Shown: positions 29 to 29,197, counted from the first letter of the stretch. The stretch: DNA of 32,000 bases from Trichlorobacter lovleyi SZ (GCF_000020385.1 NC_010814.1:2130001-2162000), one strand, 5' to 3'. Notes: a model not told the origin generated them from the letters alone. Program-made: numbers and translations.

Positions 29-3000
29 ATGAGACAGCCAATCCAAGCTTTTAGAGCTGCCCAGATTTTACCCACAATGTCACCGTTTGCTGCGGCATGC
101 AGCTGTTTTTGCATTGTTTTAATCATGCTCATGCTGTTGGGGGCAGCGCCGGTCAACGGAAACCAGACCGTTAACACCAATCCGACTATTGAACTGACAC
201 CTGCAGAAAAGGGTTGGATAACTGCTCATAAGCATATCAAGGTAGGAATTGATCCCTCATTCCCGCCGCTCAAGTTCAGTGACAACGGAACCATCAAAGG
301 TCTCGAACTTGACTACCTTAAACTGTTATCTGAAAGGATAGGGCTACAGTTTGAACCGGTAGTTGCCGGTTTCACTGTTTTGGACGAAATGGTTAAATCC
401 GGTGAGGTGGACATGTTTATTTCGTTCAACATCCCGGAACGGCTCGCTTATATGCAGTTCACTGACCCGTTAATTGAATTCAAGCAGATCATCATTAGCC
501 GCCAGGACGCCCCGTTTCTAAGCGGCCTCAGTTCTTTGAAAGGCAAAAAAGTTGCCACGGTCCGTGGAGTAAAACTCTACGACAAACTTTTGAGACCCTA
601 CCCTGAAATCCAGGTGGTTCAATTCAGTTCAATGGATCAAATGTTCCGGGCTGTCTCTGAACACAAGGCAGATGTCTTGATTTCACGAACATTGTATGCA
701 GGGCACATCATCAACAACTATCCTGATCTGAAGGTTGCCGGCGTTATTGATCTTCCAGCGGAACCATATCGCTATGCAGTTCGTAAAGAGTATCCCGAGC
801 TTGTCACTATTCTGAACAAGGCCATCAGCACTATCTCCAGAGATCAGCACGACCTGCTTGCACAGAAGTGGTTCAACATCACCATCGACTACCGTGCCCG
901 CTGGTCTGACATCCCGATCTGGGTCTACCTGCTGGGCGGCGTAGTTATCCTTTTCAGCACCGTTATTATTGTTTCGAACAGGCGCCTCAAACGTGAAATG
1001 GCAGAGCGCAACAGGGCAGAGCAAGCCAGCGCTGATAGCGCAAAACAGCTAAATGCCATTATCAACACAACAGATGCGGGCATAATTCTGGTTTCTCCGC
1101 TGGGAGTGATTGAATTCGCCAATAACCGCATGGCCGATATGTTTACCTTGCCGCTCAATGACCTGATCGGCACCAGATATGTCGAGCGCCTGCATCCTTC
1201 TGAGCGTCAAATTGGCGATGAACGCATGCGGCAGCTGATTAAAGGCGAAATCCGCTCAGTAACCCTGGATCGACATTACATCAGAGCTGACGGGACTGAC
1301 TTCTGGGGGCACCTGTCAGGCAGCCGCATGGAGCATGCTGACGGCAGCCTCAAATCGCTGGTTGGCGTTATTTCGGATATTACCCATCGCAAACAGGCCG
1401 AAGACACCTTGCGTGAAATGGAGGCAACGGCACAGGCAGCCAAGCGCCACCTAGAAGAGGCACAGCGGATAGCACACCTCGGAAGCTGGCAGCTGAATAT
1501 TGTCAGCAATCAGCTAGTCTGGTCTAAAGAGTGTTATGCAATTTTCGGTATTCAACAAGACACGTCTCTGACGTTTGAATCCTTTGTAAACTGCATCCAT
1601 CCTGACGATCGGGACTTGGTGTCTACTGCCTGGAGCAGTGCGCTTACCGGAGCGCCCTACGATATTACCCATCGCATTTGTGTCGGCGACAAGGTGAAAT
1701 GGGTTGTCGAGCAGGCTGACATAGTCTTTGACAACAACGGGAATGCCCTGCATGGGGTCGGCACGGTCCAGGATATTACCGAACGCAAGGAAACCGATAA
1801 CGCGCTACGGGAAGCAAAAGAGCGTTTCCAGTTTGTGATTGAAGGAAGCCAGCTAGGGTTCTGGGACTGGGATATTGCAACCGGCAGTGTGATACGCAAC
1901 GAGCGTTGGGCTGAGATGCTTGGCTACACCGTTCAGGATATTGAAAATAGTGTCAGGCAATGGATTGACTATATCCACCCGGACGACAGAGACCCTGCGA
2001 TGCAGTCGCTGCAGGATCATTTGGACGGCAAGACTGAGATGCATAAGGCCGAATACCGGATGCTTACCAAGGCTGGTCAGTATCGCTGGATACTGGATCA
2101 GGCAAAAATTGTTTCCCGTGACTCGCACGGCAAGCCGCTTCGCATGTGCGGTACCCATACCGATATTACGGAACGCAAACAGATACTTAATGCACTTCAG
2201 GAGAGTGAAGAACGGTATCGCAACCTCGTTGATAACCTGCAAAATGTGGTTGTGTATCAGATCACAGGCGACTTGGAAGGTAACAGGAAATTTGCGTATA
2301 TCAGCCGGGCAGTGGAGCGGTTGAACGAGATTACAGTTGAAGAGGTATTGACAGATGCAAATGTCATTTACCGCCAAATTTTGCCTCAATATCATGATGA
2401 ATTGCAACTGAAAGAGGTTGAAGCAATTAGCAATCATGCACCATTGCACATTGAAGTGCAAAGCCTGTTGCCAAGCGGCATTGTCAAGTGGTTCGAATTC
2501 ACGGTATCTCCACGTATTCGCCATGATGGCCAGATTATTTGGGATGGTGTGGAAGTTGATATCACGCATCGCAAACAATCTGAGCAGGAGCTTATTGAAG
2601 CAAAGCTGTCGGCCGATGCCGCCAATCTTGCCAAAAGTGAATTCCTGGCCAATATGAGCCATGAAATCCGCACACCAATGAATGGGGTTGTTGGCATGAC
2701 GCATCTCCTGCGGACCACCGACCTTACTCCGGAGCAAGAACAGTATCTCGCAAATATTGAAATTTCAGCTAACAGTCTCACCACTCTGATCAGCGACATC
2801 CTTGATCTTTCAAAAATCGAGTCAGGCAAAATGGTGCTTGAGTCTACAGCGTTTTCACTGCGCAGCTGCATTCAGGACATACTTTCAAGCCAACAATTTT
2901 TTATCCAACAAAAAGCTATCCGCGTTACCACCGAGATTGCTGACGAGTTGCCGAATACCCTGATCGGTGATCAGTTACGCACACGTCAGATTCTGTTGAA

Positions 3001-3358
3001 CATCCTTGGTAACGCCATCAAATTCACCGAACAGGGACAAATTAACATCGTTGCAGAGCTGGTGGAACAACACGACCGGGACATCCATGTCAGAATGGCC
3101 ATCAGAGATACCGGCATAGGTATGTCTGAACAACTACAGGAGCAGATCTTTGCTCCATTTGTCCAGGCAGATTCGTCTACTACCCGTCGTTATGGGGGCA
3201 GTGGGCTTGGACTGGCTATCTGCAGAAGACTTGCTGATCTCATGGGTGGCAGAATCTGGGTTGAAAGCCGTGAGGGGGCAGGCAGCTGCTTCTACATTGA
3301 ACTGCATTTCACCGATGCGGGTACGATCAACGTATCCCCCCCCTGTTGCAGTTGCTGA
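29..3358 (+). CDS. Sensor histidine kinase: periplasmic family-3 solute-binding-like domain, TM helix, four PAS/PAC modules, HisKA, HATPase_c. Probably the N-terminal part of a hybrid kinase interrupted by a frameshift.
   Basis: 1109-aa ORF. It has an N-terminal signal anchor, an SBP_bac_3-like region (KVGIDPSFPPLKF, LKGKKVATVRG) and a TM helix IPIWVYLLGGVVILFSTVIIV. Four PAS/PAC units each end in DIT(H/E)RK. H-box SHEIRTPMNG (His codon 2660-2662); ATPase boxes NAIKFT, DTGIGM, GGSGLGLAICRRL. The stop at 3356-3358 lies directly after a C8 run (3336-3343). Confidence 0.9.
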   Translation: MRQPIQAFRAAQILPTMSPFAAACSCFCIVLIMLMLLGAAPVNGNQTVNTNPTIELTPAEKGWITAHKHIKVGIDPSFPPLKFSDNGTIKGLELDYLKLLSERIGLQFEPVVAGFTVLDEMVKSGEVDMFISFNIPERLAYMQFTDPLIEFKQIIISRQDAPFLSGLSSLKGKKVATVRGVKLYDKLLRPYPEIQVVQFSSMDQMFRAVSEHKADVLISRTLYAGHIINNYPDLKVAGVIDLPAEPYRYAVRKEYPELVTILNKAISTISRDQHDLLAQKWFNITIDYRARWSDIPIWVYLLGGVVILFSTVIIVSNRRLKREMAERNRAEQASADSAKQLNAIINTTDAGIILVSPLGVIEFANNRMADMFTLPLNDLIGTRYVERLHPSERQIGDERMRQLIKGEIRSVTLDRHYIRADGTDFWGHLSGSRMEHADGSLKSLVGVISDITHRKQAEDTLREMEATAQAAKRHLEEAQRIAHLGSWQLNIVSNQLVWSKECYAIFGIQQDTSLTFESFVNCIHPDDRDLVSTAWSSALTGAPYDITHRICVGDKVKWVVEQADIVFDNNGNALHGVGTVQDITERKETDNALREAKERFQFVIEGSQLGFWDWDIATGSVIRNERWAEMLGYTVQDIENSVRQWIDYIHPDDRDPAMQSLQDHLDGKTEMHKAEYRMLTKAGQYRWILDQAKIVSRDSHGKPLRMCGTHTDITERKQILNALQESEERYRNLVDNLQNVVVYQITGDLEGNRKFAYISRAVERLNEITVEEVLTDANVIYRQILPQYHDELQLKEVEAISNHAPLHIEVQSLLPSGIVKWFEFTVSPRIRHDGQIIWDGVEVDITHRKQSEQELIEAKLSADAANLAKSEFLANMSHEIRTPMNGVVGMTHLLRTTDLTPEQEQYLANIEISANSLTTLISDILDLSKIESGKMVLESTAFSLRSCIQDILSSQQFFIQQKAIRVTTEIADELPNTLIGDQLRTRQILLNILGNAIKFTEQGQINIVAELVEQHDRDIHVRMAIRDTGIGMSEQLQEQIFAPFVQADSSTTRRYGGSGLGLAICRRLADLMGGRIWVESREGAGSCFYIELHFTDAGTINVSPPCCSC

Positions 3359-3764
3359 AACCAGCTTGCTGGGTCGAAGTCTGACGATCCTGCTTGCTGA
3401 AGACAATCGTGTCAATGCAGAGTTCATTGATAAAATTTTAAGCAGACTAGGGCATCGTGTTATCTGTGTGGAAAATGGCAGGCAGGCTCTGGAAATGCTT
3501 ACTCGACAGAATTTTGACCGCATTCTGATGGATATTCAGATGCCCATACTCGGTGGAGACGCCGCTACCGTGATTATCAGAGAGCAGGAGATACAAACTG
3601 GAGGACATATACCGATTATTGCGTTAACAGCCCACGCAATGCACGAAGAACGGCTCAGGATCCTTGCGCAAGGGTTCGATGCACATATTGCAAAACCGGT
3701 TGACATTTCACAACTTATTTCTGAATTATACAGAATTACGTCGTTGGAATGTTCAGGTGTGTAG
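3315..3764 (+). CDS. Response-regulator receiver (REC) domain, most likely the frameshifted C-terminus of the upstream kinase; less likely a stand-alone CheY-like protein.
   Basis: REC motifs ILLAEDNRVN, DRILMDIQMP (acceptor Asp codon 3531-3533), IIALTAHA and AKPV. The first ATG in this frame (3315) has no Shine-Dalgarno and would leave about 21 linker-like residues ahead of the REC fold. The frame is open from 3150 and overlaps the kinase 3' end. Confidence 0.8.
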   Translation: MRVRSTYPPPVAVAETSLLGRSLTILLAEDNRVNAEFIDKILSRLGHRVICVENGRQALEMLTRQNFDRILMDIQMPILGGDAATVIIREQEIQTGGHIPIIALTAHAMHEERLRILAQGFDAHIAKPVDISQLISELYRITSLECSGV

Positions 3765-9720: not shown

Positions 9721-12217
<2,497 letters not shown>

Positions 12218-16050: not shown

Positions 16051-16340
16051 TATCCATGGTATGTAGCTTTATAATCCAGCATAAAGCGTGCCCAGTCTGA
16101 TATTTTTTTCAGCAACCCGCCCAATCGGCCGTTTTGAGGAACTGAATCAGTATACCGTCATGGGCAAGCAGCTCGCCTTGTGGCGCTTTTTGTTTTTATT
16201 GAGTGACATTTTTTTGCAGTTTTTTCGTAATTTCCAGCAACCAACATGGATCGCTTGACCAGAGTGTGGGAAACTGCAGAATAATTCAAAACAACCTACG
16301 GCTTTCAAAACAGCCGGCTCCGAAACAAAGAAAGCACACT

Positions 16341-17479
16341 ATGAACTTTACTCTCTTAAAAAAAGACACTCACTCAGCCGCCCGGCTCGGCATCCTCCAG
16401 ACCAGCCATGGCGAAATCCAGACTCCGATCTTCATGCCGGTGGCCACCCATGGAGCCATGAAGCCGCTGACCCCGGCCCAGATCCATGAAACCGGGGCAC
16501 AGATCATCCTCTCCAACACCTACCATCTGCACCTGCAGCCCGGTGAAGGACTGGTCAAAAAGGCTGGTGGACTACACAGATTCATGGCCTGGGAAAAACC
16601 GATCCTGACCGATTCAGGCGGGTTCCAGGTCTTTTCACTGCCCAAGAAGCGGATTACTGAAGATGGCGTCTTTTTCAAACATGAGCTGACCGGCGAAGAG
16701 ATCTACCTTGATCCGGCCAAGGCGATCGGTATCCAGCAGGAGCTGGGCTCAGACATTATGATGGCCTTTGATGAATGCATCCCCTACCCCTGCGACAAGG
16801 CCTATGCCGAGCAGTCCACTAAAAAGACGATCCGCTGGCTGAAGGAGTGTCAGAAAGCCTGGACCAACCGTGAGACCCAGGCCCTGTTCGGCATTGTCCA
16901 GGGCAGCGTGTATGAAGACCTGCGGATCATGTGCGCCAAAGAGATGCGCAAGCTGGACCTGCCCGGCTATGCCATCGGCGGGGTCAGCGTGGGCGAAGGC
17001 CTGGAACTGCTCAAAAAGGTGGTGGGCTGGACCGCCCCGCACCTGCCGGAGGACAAGCCACGCTACCTGATGGGAGTCGGCCTGCCTGAAGATATTCTGG
17101 AAAGTGTTGAGCGGGGTATGGATATGTTTGACTGCGTGATCCCGACCCGCTACGCCCGCAGTGCCACCCTGTTTACCCGGCGCGGCAAGATCAGGGTCAC
17201 CAACAAAAACTACAAACGGGATTTTTTCCCGGTTGACCCCTCCTGCAGCTGCTACACCTGCCAGAACTTCAGCCGGGCCTATCTGCACCACCTGTTTGCT
17301 GCCAACGAGGTGCTTTCGGCAGTACTGTCCGCCATCCACAACGTCACCTTCTACCTGCAAATGATGGCAGAGATCCGTCAAGCCATTGCAGACAACCGCT
17401 TTATGGCCTATAAACAGGCCTTTCTGGCTGAATACCTGGCCTCAGAAAAACAGCCCCAAGGACCAAAGAAACACACAAA

Positions 17480-17483
<4 letters not shown>
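16341..17483 (+). CDS. tgt: Second full-length tRNA-guanine transglycosylase paralog
   Basis: 380 aa from the ATG at 16341; the ORF-track GTG at 16203 adds a non-homologous extension. Motifs: [47 protein letters not shown] and the zinc site CSCYTCQNFSRAYLHHL. Confidence 0.9.
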
Positions 17484-21408: not shown

Positions 21409-21456
21409 GACAAAGGCTCAAGCGCCAGAAAACATCCTGCCGATTGAGCCTTTGTC
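21409..21456. terminator. Long perfect hairpin between the convergent pgi and ABC ATPase genes (possible bidirectional terminator or RNA-stability element)
   Basis: GACAAAGGCTCAA (21409-21421) pairs perfectly with TTGAGCCTTTGTC (21444-21456): 13 bp with a 22-nt loop. There is no clear T-run on either strand. Confidence 0.4.
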
Positions 21457-21484: not shown

Positions 21485-22576
21485 TCAACTTCTCTTCAAC
21501 AACACCGTCACCCTGTTTATTTCTTCACAGCGCTGGTAGTCGATCTGCTGTGCCAGGTGGGTGATGATATTCAGCCCCAGCTCATCGGGCAGGCGGTCTT
21601 TATCCAGCAGGTTGACCGCCTCTCCCCGGTTCTCCAGAATGATCTCCAGGCTCTCCTTCTTTTCAGAATAGGCGATGGTCAGGTCAAGGGCGGTTGTGGC
21701 CAGCAGCGGGGTATGGATCTGCAGCAGTTCTTCCACCAGCAGCAGCAGGTTGTGCCGGGTCTTTCTGGGCAGGATCTGCCGTTCGCAGAAGATCTCGATC
21801 TCCGCATTCATGGCGTACAGGTCATAGTCAGTTGAGCTGATGCAGTAGTTGAAGCTGCGGATCCGGTTGATAAAGGCCCTGGTCTTTTCCTTCTGAGGGT
21901 TTTCAAAGATCTGCTGCGGGGTGCCTTCTTCATAGATCAGGCCTTCGTCCATGTAGAGCACCCGGCTGGAGACATCACGGGCAAAGTCCATCTCATGGGT
22001 GACGATCAGCATGGTCATGCCGTCCTTGGCCAGTCTGCGGATGACCGCCAGTACCTCGCTGACCATGGTGGGGTCAAGGGCCGAGGTCGGTTCGTCAAAC
22101 AGGATGATCTCCGGGTTCATGGCCAGGCAGCGGGCAATGGCCACCCGCTGTTTCTGACCACCGGACAGTTCATCGGGGAAGCTGTCGGCCTTTTCAGCCA
22201 GCCCCACCAGTTTGAGGATCTCCAGGGCCTTCTGTTCTGCTTCCTGTTTGTTGATCCCCAGCAGCCTGACCGGACCGATGGTCAGGTTTTCCTGGACGGT
22301 CAGGTGGGAGAAGAGGTTGAAGGATTGAAAGACCATGTTCATCCGCTGCCGGATCCTGGGGATGTCGCTCTTTTTGTCCAGCAGGTCGATCCCGTCTACG
22401 GCGATTGATCCGCCGCTGGGTTGTTCCAGCAGGTTGAGACAGCGCAGGAAGGTGGATTTGCCGGTGCCGGACGGTCCGATGATGGAGATGACTTCTCCCT
22501 TGGCAACGCTGAGGGAGATGTCTTTCAGTACGGTGACCTCACCGTAGGTCTTTGAGAGGTGTGCTACCCTGATCAT
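21485..22576 (-). CDS. Polar-amino-acid-type ABC transporter ATP-binding protein with an extra C-terminal domain of about 120 aa
   Basis: 363 aa. Residues 1-240 form a GlnQ/ArtP-like ATPase ([38 protein letters not shown]). Residues 241-363 are additional. ATGA overlap with the upstream permease gene (22573-22576). Confidence 0.9.
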
Positions 22577-24819
22577 GCCCTGCCTGCCTTTCTCTTTTTG
22601 TATTTGGGATCAGTGATCCGTTCCAGGTACTCAAGGGATTGCATCAGTGTCCATGAGATCAGGAAGTAGAGGATGGCCACCATGACCAGGGGAAAGAAGG
22701 CGTCAAAGGTGCGGCTGCGGATGATGTCGCTGGCCTTGGTCAGATCCTGTACGGCGATGTAGCCGACAATGGAGGTCATCTTGACCAGGGAGATGAACTC
22801 GCCTTTGTAGACCGGCAGGATCCGCCGCACCATCTGGGGCAGTACAATATGCAGGAAGGTGCTGGTCCTGGTGAAGCCTAAAGAGATACCAGCCTCGGTC
22901 TGCCCCTTTTCCACCCCTTCAATGCCGGTCCTGAAGATCTCGGCGGTGTAGGCGCCGAAGTTCATCCCAAAGGCGATCACCGCCACAATGACCGGGCTGA
23001 TGTTGATTGAGGCAAAGACGACATAGAAGATCAGCATCAACAGCACCAGTACCGGTGTGCCCCGCAGGATGGCGATGTAGAGCCTGGCAGGGGCAGAGAG
23101 CAGCCTGCTCTTTGCCATCCGCATGAAGCAGATCAGCGCCCCCAGCAGGGTGCCGAAGAGGGTGGCGAAGACCGAAATGACCACGGTGGTCTTGAGACCG
23201 TCCAGGATCAGCAGATACCGCATCTCATGGATGATGTTGCTCTGAAAACTGGTGACAAGGTCGCTGAAAAAGGAGGGAGCGGCCGTTGTCGCAGATGAGC
23301 CGGTCTTTCTGACCAGCACCGATATATCATTTGTAATATAGGGAACAGAAAAATTGATCAGCTTCTTCCGCTCTTCTGTCACGTTGAAATTGGAGAGTGC
23401 AAAGTCAATCTTGCCTGATTGCAGCGCTGGAATCAGGGCTTCAAAATTCATGTCGATGATCTCTATTTTTTTATTGAGACGTTCCCCGAGCAGCTGGCTC
23501 AGTTCACGGTCAAGCCCGGTGATGATGCCGTTTGACTGGAATGAAAACGGTTCAAGGTTGGCGCAGGTTCCCATCCGCAGCACACCGCTGGTATGCACAG
23601 CTTTAGCGGGCTGCAGCTGCGGGGTGGCGGTGTATTTTGTATCAACCCATTTTGTTCTCAGGCGCTGCAGTTCACCTTCCTGTTTCAAGCTTTGTAATGC
23701 CTTGTTCATTTCTGAAAGCAGTGCGGTATTATCCTTTCTGAGCGCTGCAGCCACTTCCAGTTTATCCACCGCTTGATCAAGAATCATCAGCTCCGGATTC
23801 TTTTCAGCCAGATTCAACAGTACGCTTTTGTCATAGACAAAGGCATCCGCCTTATTGGTCGTAATCGCCAGGGCGGCGTCCGCTGCTGCCGTAAAAACCT
23901 GGAATTGCGAGCCTGAAAATTTTTGACGGGCTGCCATTTCGCCCGCCGAGCCGGGCAGAACGCAGATCCGTTTGCCTTTCAAGCTGTTAAGCGTGCTCAG
24001 CTCTGACCTGTCTGATACTGTAGAAAGAGGCGCAACAGCGGGTTTTCTGACCAGCATGACCTGTTTATTGGCAAAATAGGGCTGTGTAAAGTTGACTGTC
24101 TTTTTGCGCTCACTGGTTGCTGTCATGCCGCTGATGATCAGATCAACCTTGCCCGACTGCAGGGCCGGAATCAATGCCATGAATTTCATATTAAAAAATT
24201 CAACCGGTCTCTGAAGTTTTACAGCAATGATACGGGCCAGTTCACCGTCAAAACCTGACACTCTGCCGTGGTCATCTACAAAACTGAACGGCTCCCGTGT
24301 GGCGCTCACCCCTATTTTGAGGATCTTGCCCTGCCTGAGTGGTACGACATCAAGTTCTTGATACGGACTTAAATCCGGCTTCAACCACCGTTTTTCCATA
24401 TCCGCCAGCGTGCCGTCAGCTTTCAGTGCAGCAACAATCCGATCCACCGTTGCCAGCAACTGATCATTGTCTTTTCTGACGGCAATGGCGGTATCTTCAA
24501 AATCAAGCGGCTCCGGCAGGATTCTTAATTCAGGATTCTTTTTTGAGACCTGCAGGGCAGCCGGAAACAGGGTGATGATCGCATCCAGCTGCCCTGATTT
24601 TATGGCTGCAACAGCATCCATGATGTCGTCAAAACTCTTGACCTGGGCTTTGGGAAACCGCTTGGCAGCAACAGCCTCGCCGGTTGAACCGGTCATCACG
24701 CCGATCCTGGCTTTTTGGGCATCGGCAAAACCGACTATAAGCTTTTCATTCTTGCTACAACCGCTCAAGAAAATACTCAGCACCCAAAAGACAAGTGCCA
24801 AATGTACAGCTTTTATCAT
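22573..24819 (-). CDS. Lipoprotein fusion: solute-binding-domain modules (family 3) fused to a polar-amino-acid ABC permease
   Basis: 748 aa with a lipobox signal [24 protein letters not shown]_bac_3-like sequence spans aa 27-147, 165-392 and 413-505. The TMD (aa ~530-735) carries the EAA loop [21 protein letters not shown]. Confidence 0.9.
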
Positions 24820-24822
24820 GCA

Positions 24823-26769
24823 TTACCCTTTCCGATCATCCTGTATCCCCCGGTATTTTATGGCGACCATGGTAACGTCGTCAGATTGCGGAGCGCCATT
24901 GGCATGGTGTGTAATTTCGTCACGAATATAATGCACCATGTCAGTCAACTCCAGATCGGGAACACGTTGCAGGGCCTGCAGCAACTGTTCCTCCCCATAC
25001 AGCTCGTCAGCACGGTTGGTTGCCTCGGTAACACCGTCGGTATACATGAACAATGTATCTCCCGGCTGCAGGGTAAGATGCTCGGTTGTATAGGTCATAT
25101 CCTGCATCGGACCCAGCACAAAACCTGGTTTCAGGTTCAGATAGCGTATCTTTTGAGACTCTATCAACAGCGGCGGATTATGGCCTGCATTGGCAAAACG
25201 GACTTCTCCGGTTCTAACATCCAGAATGCCGCAAAAAACCGTAGCAAACATGCAGCTGTCATTGTCAGTGGCAAGTACGTTATTGACATAGCCAAGTATC
25301 TGGTCAGGCTCACCCAGCCGCTGTCCTTCAGACTTCAGGAGGGTCTTTGCCACCATCATATACAGTGCGGCAGGCACCCCCTTGCCGGCCACATCAGCAA
25401 TCAGGAAGCAGAGATTATGCGCATCAATAAAAAAGAAATCATAGAAATCCCCGCCAACCTCCTTGGCCGGGTCCATTGAGGCAAAGATATCGAACTCCGG
25501 TCGATCCGGAAACGCGGGAAACAGACGGGGAAGCAGGCTGGCCTGGATATCGGTGGCAACCTTGAGTTCACTCTTGATCCGCTCTTTGGCCGCAGTGGTC
25601 TCGGTCAGATTCCTGATGTACTCCTTGAGAGACTCCTTCATCATCTGAAAGTCCTGGGTGAGCAGGCCGACTTCATCTTTTGTGCGGATCGGCGGAAGGT
25701 CCAGATCAAAGTTGCCTGATGCCATCAGGTGGGTTGCTGCAGCCAGCGAACGCAGCGGTTTCGTGATGGAGCTGGCAATGGAAACCACCGCCGCAGTCAG
25801 AACGAGGATGCCGACAAACCCCATGGCAGCCATGGTCATGCTCAAGCGCCTGACATTTTCCAGCAGCTCCGACTCAGGAAACACTACAGCAAGCGTCCAT
25901 CCGGTTGATCTGATCGGTGTGTAGTACATCCAGCTCCTGACACCCACCAGGCTCTTGTAGAGTATGAAACCGGATTCTCCCCTGACCATCTTTTTACCCA
26001 GTTCCCGCAGTGACGGATCCTTGCGTTCCTCGGCAATGCTGAAGAAGGTCTCATTCATAACTGCATCCTTCAACGGATGGGCGAGCAACATCCCGTTACG
26101 TGAAAGAAGCGCGGCATAACCGGTCTTGAGTATCCTGGTAGAGGAAACAAGCTTTGTCAGAGAGTCCAATGAGATATCAGCCGTCACGACCCCTTTGAGA
26201 TGCTTTATTCCGTTGACCGTATCGTAAAAAGGTACCGAACAGGTGGACATTGAAATATTGCCGGCCCCTTCGTCAAAGTACGGTTCGCTCCATTCACGCT
26301 TGCCAAGTTCCCGCGGGATCTGGTACCAGTCCCAGTAGAGGTACGGCACGTGCTGGTAGGCTGTTTCCAGGCGACTGAAGGCAATCGATCCCTTTTCCCG
26401 GTAAAAATAGGGAGCATACAGACGGGTAGATTTGCTGAAGGCGTAGGGTTCAAAGGCCACAGTAGATCCGTATATCTCCGGATTTTTCTCAACTGTTGCA
26501 CGGATCAGCGCCAACAGTTCCTGCTCACTATAGCGGCCGGTTTCCAGTGAACGGGCCACCCCTTCTGTCACCTTGGCGACTGCAACAAGCTCTGTCTCCA
26601 CCCGGTGCACCAGTGACATGGCAAGATTGCGTGCGTTGTTTTCCAGCTCCTGTTCCAGTATCTGCCGGGAACGGTAATAGTTGTAGCCGAGCGCTGCGGC
26701 AAAGATGCACGAGCAACAGAGTGTGATTACGAATACCAGCCTGACGACAATGCTACTTTTCCCGGGCAT
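24823..26769 (-). CDS. Membrane sensor phosphatase: extracytoplasmic Cache-like domain, HAMP, PP2C/SpoIIE (RsbU-type) phosphatase
   Basis: TM1 (VVRLVFVITLCCSCIFAAALG), a periplasmic region of about 270 aa, TM2 (MTMAAMGFVGILVLTAAVVSI) and a HAMP linker. PP2C motifs GGDFYDFF, DVAGKGVPAAL, TDGVTEA and DDVTMVAI. The preferred ATG is 26767-26769, 4 nt after GGGAGG. The ORF-track ATG at 26793 has no SD. Confidence 0.88.
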   Translation of the reverse strand: MPGKSSIVVRLVFVITLCCSCIFAAALGYNYYRSRQILEQELENNARNLAMSLVHRVETELVAVAKVTEGVARSLETGRYSEQELLALIRATVEKNPEIYGSTVAFEPYAFSKSTRLYAPYFYREKGSIAFSRLETAYQHVPYLYWDWYQIPRELGKREWSEPYFDEGAGNISMSTCSVPFYDTVNGIKHLKGVVTADISLDSLTKLVSSTRILKTGYAALLSRNGMLLAHPLKDAVMNETFFSIAEERKDPSLRELGKKMVRGESGFILYKSLVGVRSWMYYTPIRSTGWTLAVVFPESELLENVRRLSMTMAAMGFVGILVLTAAVVSIASSITKPLRSLAAATHLMASGNFDLDLPPIRTKDEVGLLTQDFQMMKESLKEYIRNLTETTAAKERIKSELKVATDIQASLLPRLFPAFPDRPEFDIFASMDPAKEVGGDFYDFFFIDAHNLCFLIADVAGKGVPAALYMMVAKTLLKSEGQRLGEPDQILGYVNNVLATDNDSCMFATVFCGILDVRTGEVRFANAGHNPPLLIESQKIRYLNLKPGFVLGPMQDMTYTTEHLTLQPGDTLFMYTDGVTEATNRADELYGEEQLLQALQRVPDLELTDMVHYIRDEITHHANGAPQSDDVTMVAIKYRGIQDDRKG

Positions 26770-27787
26770 TGGACCTCCCGCTGAAGGTGGCATAGTCGGG
26801 ATAGCTCCGGATCAGACCATTTGCACGCAGAGCACGGCCAACCCCCTCATAATCCTGCTGTTTGAGCAGGCCCGGTAATCCTCGGGGAGCGTCGTACATG
26901 ATCAGATCCCGCATCCGGTCAAGCATCCATTTCTGATGAACCCGGTTGGCAGGTATCTGAGCCTCGCGCATATACTTGATGACAACATCCAGCGCTTCAT
27001 CCGGATGGGCAAAGGCGTAATGCCACCCCTCCAGCGAGGCCGCCACAAAGGCTTTTGCCAGGGCTGGATCATTTTGCAGTGTCTTTTCCAGGGTATAAAT
27101 CCCGTCTTCCGGGTACTGCATCCCCAGTTCATGAAGTGAGAAAACCTGCAGCTCATCGGGATCAAGCCCTGCATTGAGCATCACATGGTACTCGTTATAC
27201 CACATGGCGGATGTCACATCGATGCCGTCGCGCAGAAAGAGGTTTATCGTGTGTGACTGGGGAACCTCCCGCACCTTGATCCCGTACCTGGCGACCAGAG
27301 CACGCGGTGGTATTGACAACTCTCCTCCCCACATCCCTACCTTCCTGCCGTTCATATCCTTAACAGTTTTAATGCCGCTGGATTTTTTAGCGACCAGCAT
27401 CATTGAGGAACGCTGAATGATCTGCGCCAGGTTCACCAGTTTTACACCGGCAGAGTGGCGTTTCAGCGCCGTTGTCAACCAGAGCACGGCAAAATCCGCC
27501 TTGCCCTCCTGCAGGGTCTGTGCAGGAGAATAGCCCGGTCCGGCCTTGAGAATCTTCAGGTCAATGCCGTGGCGGGCATAGATCCCTTTGTCAAGGGCCA
27601 CATAATAGCCGGCAAACTGGGCCTGGGGGCTCCAGAGCGGCATCAGGGAGGCCTTTTTCAGGGCAGTTTCAACGGCGCCGGCAGGAGACCAGGGGGCATA
27701 ACAGAGTACAAACAGCATCAGTGCGCTGATCTGCCTCAGCCAGGTCCATCCGTTGTGATTGCGTTGTGATTGGAGTGAGATGGTCAT
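26753..27787 (-). CDS. Periplasmic NMT1/THI5-like (nitrate/sulfonate/bicarbonate family) substrate-binding protein
   Basis: 344 aa with a signal sequence (LRQISALMLFVLCYAPWSPAGA). Family-typical N-terminal block PLWSPQAQFAGYYVALDKGIYARHGIDLKIL and the later block GRKVGMWGG. The stop overlaps the start of the phosphatase gene. Confidence 0.78.
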   Translation of the reverse strand: MTISLQSQRNHNGWTWLRQISALMLFVLCYAPWSPAGAVETALKKASLMPLWSPQAQFAGYYVALDKGIYARHGIDLKILKAGPGYSPAQTLQEGKADFAVLWLTTALKRHSAGVKLVNLAQIIQRSSMMLVAKKSSGIKTVKDMNGRKVGMWGGELSIPPRALVARYGIKVREVPQSHTINLFLRDGIDVTSAMWYNEYHVMLNAGLDPDELQVFSLHELGMQYPEDGIYTLEKTLQNDPALAKAFVAASLEGWHYAFAHPDEALDVVIKYMREAQIPANRVHQKWMLDRMRDLIMYDAPRGLPGLLKQQDYEGVGRALRANGLIRSYPDYATFSGRSNAREK

Positions 27788-28000
27788 AGTGTCTGCCGGT
27801 CAGGTACAAAACCAGCCACATTCCTCATGAAGTTTTCAGGGGATATGGCAAAATCGGTGCAAGCAGTTATTGGGATCAACATCTTAGTTGTTGTTTGCAA
27901 ATGGTAACACCAGCACGGCAACTGTCAATCTGAAAGCGGGTTCATCATCAAATGCAGACAGTGCATGGCCGCATTGCGCTCCCGCTTGCAGCGAAATTCT

Positions 28001-29197
28001 CTAACTGCAGCAACTCTGCATCTGCAACGCACCGGCCGGGCAGACATGGCTGCAGAGTGAACAGCTCTTGCAGACAGTCGGATCGATCCCCGGCAGCCCC
28101 TTGTTCCAGCTGATGGCCTGGTAACCTCCGTCGCGACAGGCAGTAAAGCAGGCGCCGCAGTGAGTACAACGCTCAGCCAGCAGTCTTGGAGAAACCATCG
28201 TGCCAGCGGGCAACTTCTTGAAACTGGTGGCTGAATCTCGACAGAGCCCGATAAAATCAACCGGAGCGGTAAAATCATGCCACGTCATGAACTCCCGCAG
28301 TTCCTGTTGCATTCTGTCAATTATGCCAAAACCATGCAGCATTACTTCGGTGGCCATCTGCACGACAGGTGCACCCAAGAGCATGAACTCCACGGCGTCA
28401 AAGCCGTTGGCGATGCCACCGCTGGCCATGACCGGTAAACCGGGTGACTGACAGAGTTCGCTGACTGCCCGCAGGGCAATCGGTTTGATACCAGGGCCGG
28501 AATAACCGCCATAGCTGGTTTTGCCGCCGATATCAGGTTTTGGCCGCAAGGTACGCAGATCAAAGCCAAAGAATGAGGGAATGGTATTGATGGCACAGAA
28601 CCCGTGAGCACCGGCCAGGGCCAGCTCTTCTGCAATATTCTGGATGTTGGCTACAGCGGCAGTCAGTTTGGGAATCACCGGAATGGTGATCTCTTTACAG
28701 TCTGTTACCCAACGGGTGATCTGTGCCGCATAGTCCGGATTCTGACCGATGGCTGCCCCACGGCCCCGTTCCGGGTAACCGTGGGGGCAGGAAAAATTAA
28801 GTTCCAGCAGGTCTGCCCCGGCATCCTGACAGCCCAGGGCAAGGGAGTGCCACTCATCAGGTGAATTGGCAGCCCCCATGATACTGCCAATGATCGGACA
28901 ATCGGGAAAATCAGCCTTGATGCACCGGATGGCCCGATACCACTCATCCGGTGCCTGTTCACTCAACAGCTCCAGGTTTTCAAAACCGGTGATCCGGTTG
29001 CCATGCCTGATTGCAGCAAAACGGTTGGGCAGGTTGTGTACCGGTTCGCGAATAAGGGTCTTGATCACGGCCCCGCCCCACCCTGCTTCAAAGGCACGCC
29101 GCACCATGTCAGCGGTGGCGGTGGGTGGGGCCGAGGCCAGAACAAACGGATTCCTGAAGACTACTCCCAAATAGGTTGAATCCAGGACAACAGGCAT
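28001..29197 (-). CDS. DHOD/DPD-family flavoprotein with a C-terminal 2x[4Fe-4S] ferredoxin domain (PreA-like dihydropyrimidine dehydrogenase subunit)
   Basis: 398 aa with VVFRNPFVLASAP, the active-site loop LNFSCPHGYPERG and the FMN-binding end GGIANGFDAVEFMLLGAPVVQMAT. Cluster motifs CTHCGACFTAC and CKSCSLCSHVCP. AGGAG lies 7 nt before the ATG at 29197. Confidence 0.85.
   Translation of the reverse strand: MPVVLDSTYLGVVFRNPFVLASAPPTATADMVRRAFEAGWGGAVIKTLIREPVHNLPNRFAAIRHGNRITGFENLELLSEQAPDEWYRAIRCIKADFPDCPIIGSIMGAANSPDEWHSLALGCQDAGADLLELNFSCPHGYPERGRGAAIGQNPDYAAQITRWVTDCKEITIPVIPKLTAAVANIQNIAEELALAGAHGFCAINTIPSFFGFDLRTLRPKPDIGGKTSYGGYSGPGIKPIALRAVSELCQSPGLPVMASGGIANGFDAVEFMLLGAPVVQMATEVMLHGFGIIDRMQQELREFMTWHDFTAPVDFIGLCRDSATSFKKLPAGTMVSPRLLAERCTHCGACFTACRDGGYQAISWNKGLPGIDPTVCKSCSLCSHVCPAGALQMQSCCS

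Follow-up and report, generated by a model that had tools for sequence, protein, structure and literature searches.

A sensor phosphatase operon of Trichlorobacter lovleyi SZ with an RsbW-like domain on an ABC ATPase: a candidate partner switch controlling amino-acid import

A stretch of 32,000 nucleotides from the genome of Trichlorobacter lovleyi SZ (NC_010814.1:2130001-2162000; the window in what follows) was analysed with respect to four tightly packed open reading frames (ORFs) on its minus strand at 21485-27787, which were located by ORF mapping and encode an NMT1-like solute-binding protein, a Cache-HAMP-PP2C phosphatase, an ATP-binding cassette (ABC) permease fused to solute-binding domains (SBDs), and an ABC ATPase with an additional C-terminal domain (CTD). 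We consider it probable, at roughly 0.6, that the four genes make up a single operon for a polar amino-acid importer gated by a signal, and that a switch of the RsbU/RsbV/RsbW type acts in it on the transporter and not on a sigma factor. By modelled fold and profile comparison the CTD is an RsbW/SpoIIAB-type GHKL domain fused to the nucleotide-binding domain (NBD) of the importer, and in most lineages the operon continues with a STAS gene and a gene for a catalytically intact RsbW-like kinase.

The sensor phosphatase, the six-gene operon and the ATPase C-terminal domain

The phosphatase gene (24823-26769, minus strand, 648 aa) encodes a transmembrane segment, a dCache domain (~25882-26658), a second transmembrane segment, a HAMP domain (~25621-25779), a coiled linker and a SpoIIE/RsbU-type PP2C domain (~24853-25422), with Pfam E-values of 2.5e-28 for MCP-like_PDC_1, 3.1e-17 for dCache_1, 6.7e-12 for HAMP and 3.6e-53 for SpoIIE. 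The last of these matches (PF07228) spanned profile positions 2-191 of 192, and the metal-binding motifs GGDFYD, ADVAGKG, YTDG and SDDVT were all kept. The NMT1-like protein (26753-27787, minus strand, 344 aa; NMT1/THI5-like, PF09084, E = 2.7e-44) is periplasmic, with an N-terminal signal-like segment. Its gene stood immediately 5' of the PP2C gene in most canonical loci, and we propose that the protein assists the Cache phosphatase in sensing.

A pattern scan of species-representative genomes from many phyla returned 203 related stretches, from which 80 loci, together with two metagenome contigs, were analysed; these came from Geobacterales and other Desulfobacterota, Chlorobiaceae, Methylococcaceae, Burkholderiales, Acidobacteriota, Bacteroidota/Melioribacter, Rhodothermales, Victivallales and Syntrophomonas. 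All ORFs of the flanks were searched with profiles, and counts of gene position cover the 50 loci which were fully flanked. The order NMT1, Cache-HAMP-PP2C, SBD-permease, ATPase-CTD recurred in Desulfobacterota, Chlorobiaceae, Methylococcaceae, Burkholderiales, Bacteroidota, Rhodothermales and Victivallales. A preliminary description of the window, made from its sequence alone, had proposed a coupling of phosphatase and transporter, to be checked by conservation of the gene neighbourhood, and this recurrence of the four-gene order across phyla supports it.

In the recurrent layout the genes for NMT1, dCache-HAMP-PP2C, the fusion of SBDs to the transmembrane domain (TMD), and NBD-CTD were followed by a small STAS gene directly 3' of the ATPase gene. 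Every fully flanked locus with an upstream PP2C gene (21 of 50) had this downstream STAS gene. Where the PP2C gene lay downstream, the STAS gene was present at two loci and missing from three, the latter being of Trichlorobacter type, and where there was no PP2C gene nearby it was present at two and missing from 22. The operon STAS protein (41 copies, ~111 aa; PF01740, 1.2e-18) kept YISSAGLR without variation, the motif that bears the phospho-serine in RsbV/SpoIIAA-type proteins. Clustering of flanking ORFs identified a sixth conserved gene after STAS, encoding a protein of ~140 aa which we call K6; it adjoined STAS in 29 of the 39 STAS-bearing loci, either on the same strand or, in Methylococcaceae, convergently. 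K6 proteins scored 74-97 bits against PF13581, and when they were aligned with verified SpoIIAB/RsbW sequences the only invariant columns were E47, N51, D81, G107 and G109, which are the catalytic Glu, the N-box Asn, the G1 Asp and the two G2 glycines. Since all catalytic motifs are intact in this alignment, K6 is predicted to be an active Ser kinase. When the neighbours of canonical loci were clustered, no further conserved gene was found around the six, whether for a sigma factor or for any other output, and the transporter is therefore the only candidate output. The pathway without STAS and kinase which the preliminary description had implied was not upheld, as the operons of relatives carry both and the SZ orthologues lie elsewhere in the genome.

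The CTD (aa 239-363, ~125 aa; 21488-21862, minus strand) gave an E-value of 7.4e-4 and 20.0 bits against PF13581 (HATPase_c_2), and among 44 taxonomically diverse CTD homologues 38 matched this family at E <=0.01, the best at 4.3e-8. An AlphaFold2 (AF2) model of the CTD built from the homologue alignment (pLDDT 91, pTM 0.84) had the element order beta1, alpha1, alpha2, beta2, beta3, lid, alpha3, beta4, beta5. When this model was searched against the PDB with Foldseek, the top 22 matches were all anti-sigma-factor kinases (TM 0.55-0.74), among them UsfX (the best), SpoIIAB, RsbW, the RsbW domain of Rv1364c, and SiaB. When the CTD family was aligned by hhalign with a K6/SpoIIAB/RsbW profile, the probability was 97.6% and E = 4.6e-12 over 124 columns. 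The Bergerat/GHKL sandwich with RsbW/SpoIIAB topology was thus recovered by AF2, Foldseek and hhalign. The kinship is clear only with the fold search and the profile of the operon kinase: searches of the PDB with the CTD as single sequence and as profile returned chance matches only, and hhalign of the CTD against single SpoIIAB or RsbW sequences aligned the G2 region alone, with E ~0.1. The extra domain of the ATPase, singled out at the outset, proved to be RsbW-like, and its place as the key to the coupling is supported.

With respect to the kinase motifs, little was retained in the CTD. The N-box Asn falls in a one-residue gap, with the neighbouring position 52 being Q in only 36 of 44 sequences; the G1 Asp, invariant in K6, RsbW and SpoIIAB, is replaced at position 82 by S in 29 of 44 sequences and by N in 6 of 44; profile alignment placed an 11-residue deletion in the ATP lid; and the GGLG of the G2 box is cut down to (E/D)-L-G. 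The survivors are the invariant equivalent of the catalytic Glu, E49, and only one Gly per box, so that the N-box Asn, G1 Asp-x-Gly and G2 Gly-x-Gly of Mg-ATP binding are not present as a set. Because the N-box Asn, the G1 Asp, most of the lid and part of G2 have been lost, the CTD is predicted to be a pseudokinase, and we propose it as a docking site for STAS and/or the RsbW-like kinase. Residues of the former ATP pocket (E48, E49, E81, G84, N88, D97 and G100) were strongly conserved in the CTD family, and S70, E71 and K72 of a 'YSEK' turn were invariant or nearly so in the 44 CTDs.

Two motifs were common to the CTD and K6 and absent from SpoIIAB and RsbW, namely E-x-x-(A/C)-(D/E)-(R/K) in helix alpha-1 and a C-terminal Y-(R/Q)-R...N-x-L. 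These family-specific motifs suggest that the CTD was derived from a copy of the operon kinase with its partner-binding surface kept, and that it binds the same partner. When 1.84 billion cluster representatives were searched exhaustively for the CTD with HMMER, 103 proteins were returned at E <=0.001, 29 of them at <=1e-10, and as these were mostly fragments or ATPase C-termini the family appears to be modest in size and specific. The top representative of this search (P0018) was a 140-aa ORF on a 590-bp European Nucleotide Archive contig, the first ~25 residues of which are those of an operon-type STAS N-terminus (MEFQSRKEAGATILTISGRLDAVTTP) joined to a CTD where the peptides PEYEK and PDYDLY resemble each other; it reflects either misassembly or a natural recombination of STAS and CTD.

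Unlinked STAS and kinase genes and a paralogous cluster in T. lovleyi SZ

At the window locus itself, of the components of a partner switch only the PP2C phosphatase was present; genes for STAS proteins, for RsbW-type kinases with N, G1 and G2 boxes and for sigma factors were not found within the 32-kb window, and a lenient scan of all its ORFs of >=35 aa with STAS profiles gave a best E-value of 2.3, in agreement with the preliminary description. The pair is nevertheless encoded in the SZ genome. Exact look-up of proteins from a metagenome contig identified the SZ STAS protein as ACD94477.1 and the SZ kinase K6 as ACD94476.1, both encoded away from this locus, and the idea that T. lovleyi is without STAS and K6 was rejected once the pair had been found by synteny, metagenome scan and this look-up. 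The SZ STAS was 69% identical to the in-operon STAS of the canonical locus L028, which is comparable to the 73-79% found for NMT1 and PP2C. The preliminary description had also named what would count against it, a canonical STAS/RsbW pair elsewhere shown to be the sole partner of this phosphatase, and half of this has come about, in that the pair exists.

In T. thiogenes, STAS and K6 lay on the same contig as a CTD-ATPase cluster of the second type described below, in the order Tll0287-HAMP-PAS sensor, HD-GYP-like, STAS, K6, OEP, PAS-MFP, MacB, followed by a transporter made of a solute-binding protein (SBP) and an SBD-TMD protein. The arrangement of STAS and K6 seen in T. thiogenes recurred on a metagenome contig with 99.1% identity to contig L083, which is of T. 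lovleyi level. In these Trichlorobacter arrangements (L100 22-6224; L090 7528-15617) 4-nt overlaps indicated translational coupling of STAS/K6 to the HD-GYP-like gene on the 5' side and to the OEP/PAS-MFP/MacB-type pump on the 3' side, and the switch may also touch cyclic di-GMP turnover or a second ABC machine.

The window ATPase is ACD95737.1 / WP_012470076.1 of the finished SZ genome, and the same genome encodes a paralogous ATPase, ACD94439.1, which is 98% identical. The exact ACD94439.1 sequence was carried by contig L089 in a second cluster with a different gene set, in the order permease, ATPase-CTD, Fe-ADH, a 146-aa ORF, MR_MLE epimerase-like, dCache-HAMP-PP2C (716 aa), ABC_sub_bind protein and two Mem_trans genes. 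Clusters of this type (type II) were also present in T. thiogenes and in further Geobacteraceae. The 146-aa ORF was considered as a cryptic STAS and ruled out by profile scan. The two SZ phosphatases were 57% identical in the PP2C domain and 27% in the sensor.

The heads of the two SZ operons are unrelated, and their tails share a 1.76-kb intragenomic repeat covering the TMD, the NBD and nearly the whole CTD (window 21503-23259; L089 1-1757; L083 9295-11092), with 99.1% DNA identity between window and paralogue, which indicates a recent gene conversion. The head of the window operon was nearest to canonical six-gene loci such as L028 (73/79/79% for NMT1, sensor and PP2C). Its tail was nearest to same-genus type-II tails, at 88-92 / 91-94 / 81-86% for TMD, NBD and CTD, and the corresponding values against the same-genus STAS-linked tail L033 were lower at 77/84/67%; this greater closeness to type II suggests that the tail of the window operon was overwritten from the paralogue.

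Short-read contigs ended at the repeat boundary. The metagenome-assembled contig L083 (DAHVKC010000040.1) carried a third head (Peptidase_M14, SBP, SBD-TMD) on the tail of the window operon, with an identical ATPase and identical downstream genes; the density of mismatches was higher inside the repeat (12 of 25), and this contig is probably a chimera or a recombinant. Both the contig breaks and the mixture of head and tail in L083 are explained by the 1.76-kb repeat of 99% identity. That the window operon is itself an assembly chimera was rejected, as the SZ genome is finished and the repeat accounts for the breaks; Logan contigs moreover supported the junction of head and TMD across five positions which differ from L083.

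Neighbours of the type II and type III transporters included a GH3 NagZ-like protein, an M14 peptidase and an MR_MLE protein (L008 5116-18024; L089 1827-9992; L083 6109-8372). We take M14 to be the peptidase family of MpaA and the MR_MLE neighbour to be L-Ala-D/L-Glu epimerase-like; together these genes recall murein-peptide recycling, a hint that the importers serve for cell-wall-derived amino acids or peptides. In type II and III clusters the PP2C sensor was paired with a PF04392 ABC_sub_bind protein, not with NMT1.

Proposed mechanism, alternatives and related systems

In the mechanism that we propose, a periplasmic cue would be read by the dCache domain, probably together with the translationally coupled NMT1-like protein, and would switch the PP2C domain through HAMP. 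The phosphatase would strip the phosphate which K6 places on the STAS serine, so that the two enzymes together would set the phosphorylation state of STAS. Unphosphorylated STAS would then bind a dimer of the pseudo-RsbW CTD under the NBDs, or draw K6 off the CTD, and this exchange of STAS or K6 at the CTD would alter how the NBDs close and, with it, transport. In T. lovleyi one hub of STAS and K6 may receive input from no fewer than two sensor phosphatases that differ in their periplasmic domains and may control at least two importers, the tails of which would be kept near-identical by gene conversion so that both fit the same STAS/K6 partner; the need for both CTDs to match one hub is offered here as the rationale for the homogenised tails. 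Convergence of this kind is found in Bacillus, where RsbU and RsbP both feed RsbV. We give even odds to the wider proposal that these loci represent an undescribed class of partner switch spanning phyla, in which a duplicated, dead copy of the system's own kinase fused to the NBD is the receptor for STAS (or for the kinase), an extracellular cue, sensed by Cache-PP2C with the help of a binding protein, switches uptake on or off post-translationally, and the T. lovleyi hub integrates several phosphatases and controls several importers with tails homogenised by gene conversion.

Several points weigh against the reading of a partner switch on the importer. Every interaction in it is deduced from homology and synteny, and computation leaves two choices both for the partner of the CTD (STAS or K6) and for the sign of the effect (activation or inhibition). 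The Pfam score of the window CTD itself, 20 bits, lies under the gathering threshold of 27.4. The window encodes neither STAS nor K6, both of which sit in a different Trichlorobacter operon, where they could therefore serve another output, and 22 of the 50 fully flanked CTD loci are without PP2C and STAS nearby, so that the CTD there would act in trans or serve a purpose outside the switch.

The place of STAS and K6 in another Trichlorobacter operon bears on an alternative in which the transporter is the input (a 'transceptor'), with the transport or ATP state of the NBD altering the hold of the CTD on STAS or K6 and the output lying elsewhere, for example at HD-GYP or MacB. This option had already been raised in the preliminary description, and the translational coupling of STAS/K6 in T. 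thiogenes and T. lovleyi to the HD-GYP-like gene and the pump fits it. That context is lineage-specific, however, and the canonical six-gene operons of other phyla, having no further conserved gene, would be left with two inputs and no output; we regard a transceptor as unlikely. About as unlikely is direct phospho-regulation, where PP2C would dephosphorylate the transporter (e.g. the CTD at Ser70 in 'YSEK', or the SBD-permease) with no STAS step. It would suit both T. lovleyi clusters and all Trichlorobacter/Geobacter type-II loci, in which Cache-HAMP-PP2C is encoded 1-4.3 kb from the CTD-ATPase and STAS/K6 are non-adjacent, as well as the near-invariance of S70, E71 and K72. Yet phosphatases of the SpoIIE/RsbU family characteristically act on phospho-STAS, a phospho-serine STAS accompanied all 21 fully flanked upstream-PP2C loci, the orthologous STAS/K6 pair is present in trans in SZ, and no kinase for the CTD is evident, the CTD itself being without kinase motifs. 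The CTD had at first been seen as the only candidate partner of the phosphatase, a view that is not supported; as a kinase-dead RsbW-like element it would belong to the STAS-binding side of the switch and would not be the usual phosphatase substrate.

The loci without PP2C or STAS, and the conservation of the former pocket residues as would be expected of a ligand site, agree with a further alternative, in which the CTD serves as a regulatory or dimerisation domain of the usual ABC kind, binds a small ligand in its degenerate nucleotide pocket and mediates trans-inhibition, PP2C, STAS and K6 being merely co-located and regulating something else. This we hold to be the least probable of the alternatives, for the CTD is specifically homologous to the kinase of the same operon, by profile alignment and by family-specific motifs, and the tight synteny across phyla with overlapping or adjacent genes is hard to obtain by chance.

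Domains below the NBD dimer are an established means of controlling ABC importers: in inducer exclusion at MalK by EIIAGlc, and in trans-inhibition through the C2 domain of MetN and in ModC, C-terminal domains at this place control NBD closure. The arrangement proposed here is alike in that an extra domain under the NBD dimer would let a ligand or, as with EIIAGlc, a protein whose action depends on phosphorylation govern the closure of the NBDs. The folds differ, those of MalK, MetN and ModC being OB-like/TOBE or ACT-like and not GHKL, and none of the three is known to have a dedicated partner-switching module.

The three protein families of the switch (PP2C, single-domain phospho-Ser STAS and HATPase_c_2 Ser kinase) are those of the Bacillus RsbU-RsbV-RsbW and SpoIIE-SpoIIAA-SpoIIAB systems and of the mycobacterial UsfX/RsbW1-RsfA/RsfB system. 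Differences from these are that no sigma factor is involved, that a second, kinase-dead RsbW-like domain is placed on an importer NBD, that the phosphatase is a membrane Cache-HAMP protein with its own periplasmic binding protein, and that the T. lovleyi genes for STAS and kinase lie apart from the phosphatase gene. Mycobacterial kinase-negative RsbW homologues (RsbW1/UsfX) still bind STAS antagonists (PMC7693655), and UsfX, the best structural match of the CTD, is thereby a precedent for a kinase-negative RsbW-like STAS binder.

Regulation of an ABC ATPase by a STAS protein has a precedent in MlaB, which binds and regulates MlaF, and phospho-control of an equivalent Thr was proposed in the MlaFEDB study (PMC7367683); according to the same paper there was no other STAS-ABC pair in the PDB. 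The likeness, a small STAS protein acting on an ABC transporter through its ATPase subunit, is one of function by analogy only. MlaB contacts the helical subdomain of the NBD directly, MlaF is without an RsbW-like domain and is not known to have a kinase or phosphatase of its own; the Mla system furthermore moves lipid, whereas the system described here is an SBD-fused amino-acid importer with an ATPase that is GlnQ-like and not MlaF-like.

Partner switches without a sigma factor include SiaABCD of Pseudomonas, HsbR/HsbA, BtrUVW, SypE/SypA and HenR/All4160 (bioRxiv 10.64898/2026.04.08.717354), and in these, too, PP2C/STAS/kinase logic directly controls an enzyme or machine and not transcription. 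SiaA is likewise a HAMP-PP2C membrane protein (the window phosphatase matched NF038263 with 93 bits against a cutoff of 700), and SiaB was among the fold matches of the CTD. The outputs of these switches are a diguanylate cyclase, flagellar and type III secretion regulators and an exopolysaccharide enzyme; none is a transporter, and none has a pseudokinase fused to the target. Full-text searches of the literature gave no description of a fusion between an ABC NBD and an RsbW-like domain, nor of any ABC importer under the control of a partner switch, which supports the statement in the preliminary description that no characterised example of this composition is known.

Few post-translational controls of ABC importers are known (MalK-EIIAGlc, MetN, ModC, MlaB), and partner switching is still viewed mainly as control of sigma factors. 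If the proposal is true, a complete RsbU/RsbV/RsbW-type switch would be wired to a transporter, a GHKL pseudokinase domain on an ABC ATPase would acquire a function, and an extracellular signal would gate nutrient uptake without transcription. A better annotation would also be gained for ~200 loci in Geobacterales that respire organohalides or reduce metals, in green sulfur bacteria, in methanotrophs and in other groups, which at present carry the labels 'amino acid ABC transporter ATP-binding protein', 'STAS domain protein' or 'ATP-binding protein'. Since both T. lovleyi SZ and T. thiogenes are in culture, the prediction is accessible to experiment.

Transporter architecture, operon structure and surrounding genes

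The permease (22573-24819, minus strand, 748 aa) and the ATPase (21485-22576, minus strand, 363 aa) combine a TMD of the polar amino-acid HEQRo type (22573-23256; BPD_transp_1 5.1e-17; TIGR01726 75.9 bits, above the 42.2 cutoff) with a GlnQ/HisP-like NBD (aa 1-238, 21863-22576; ABC_tran 3e-38), the combination that defines a polar amino-acid (PAAT) importer. The NBD scored 306.8 bits against the GlnQ family NF007027 (equivalog cutoff 379) and 299 against EhuA, and as both scores lie below the equivalog cutoffs the importer is left without a substrate assignment. An exact look-up of the 748-aa permease sequence gave no match.

The periplasmic part of the permease (23299-24750, minus strand) matched SBP_bac_3 (PF00497, 2.3e-75) and TIGR01096 (273 bits, above the 256 cutoff). 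Where the preliminary description had a simple tandem array of SBDs, profile coordinates revealed two amino-acid-binding domains in circularly permuted order, preceded by a lipoprotein-like signal (LSGC): the C-terminal two-thirds of one SBD (24361-24750, SBP_bac_3 profile 73-226 of 227) is followed by a full SBD (23620-24333, 2-227 of 227) and by the N-terminal third (23299-23592, 2-99 of 227), so that the canonical SBP_bac_3 (class-F) topology is not adopted. The same pattern, C-terminal two-thirds, n = 0, 1 or 2 full SBDs, N-terminal third and TMD, was present in every related locus inspected (the window, L008, L015, L028, L030, L037, L066 and L083), and in permeases with n = 0 the two fragments summed to exactly one SBD. 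A free 261-aa SBP in L083 had the same permuted order. GlnPQ of Lactococcus lactis is likewise a PAAT-type importer with a GlnQ-like ATPase and tandem SBDs fused N-terminally to the TMD; the present system differs in its pseudo-RsbW domain and in its permuted SBDs, an order which, to our knowledge, is unlike that of L. lactis GlnP. In L009 and L059 (Chlorobiaceae / Pelodictyon) two tandem SBD-TMD permease genes preceded a single NBD-CTD ATPase gene in a canonical operon, which suggests either a heterodimeric permease or two permeases on one regulated ATPase.

All four ORFs, their domains and their junctions were reproduced as they had been described beforehand. The PP2C gene has an ATG at 26769 preceded by GGGAGG, which gives the 648-aa product of public gene calls, and an upstream ATG at 26793, which gives 656 aa (24823-26793); the overlap of the NMT1 stop with the PP2C start is accordingly 17 or 41 nt. 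A gap of 3 nt separates the PP2C stop from the permease start, and the permease and ATPase genes overlap as ATGA. Adjacency of the NMT1, PP2C and permease genes was seen in at least five independent Logan assemblies at 99.99-100% identity.

The upstream region, previously put at about 210 bp, measured 213 bp (27788-28000), and contained a sigma-70-like promoter site on the minus strand (27901-27928, TTGACA-16-TACCAT, TG-extended), a consensus match only, with 10 of 12 positions agreeing; an Rfam scan of 27700-28100 returned no family match. The 13-bp hairpin noted downstream was recovered as a perfect stem with a 22-nt loop (21409-21456; arms 21456-21444 / 21421-21409; -32.1 kcal/mol, z = -5.9), without a U-tract, between the stops of the ATPase gene and the convergent pgi gene, which are 96 bp apart. 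It may be a bidirectional terminator or a stabiliser; a generic terminator scan did not report it because the loop is long and a T-run is absent.

The remaining genes of the window are of housekeeping type and comprise an SBP-PAS histidine kinase with response regulator, a cation diffusion facilitator (CDF) transporter, recJ, secDF, tgt, queA, spoIID, oligopeptide ATPases, eno, pgi, a PreA-like DHODH and a twin-arginine translocation (TAT) metallophosphoesterase. The histidine kinase (29-3764, 1109 aa) combines a periplasmic SBP_bac_3 domain with PAS domains, HisKA and HATPase_c, and the response-regulator ORF that comes next overlaps or adjoins its gene; a similar SBP_bac_3-PAS hybrid kinase was encoded in L049 directly 3' of the CTD-ATPase, at the place held by STAS in other loci. 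Two genes of the queuine tRNA-ribosyltransferase (TGT) family (10041-11183 and 16203-17483) lie less than 6 kb apart near queA, and the product of the second (426 aa) is extended at its N-terminus; the 291-aa ORF that comes after this gene has no Pfam match.

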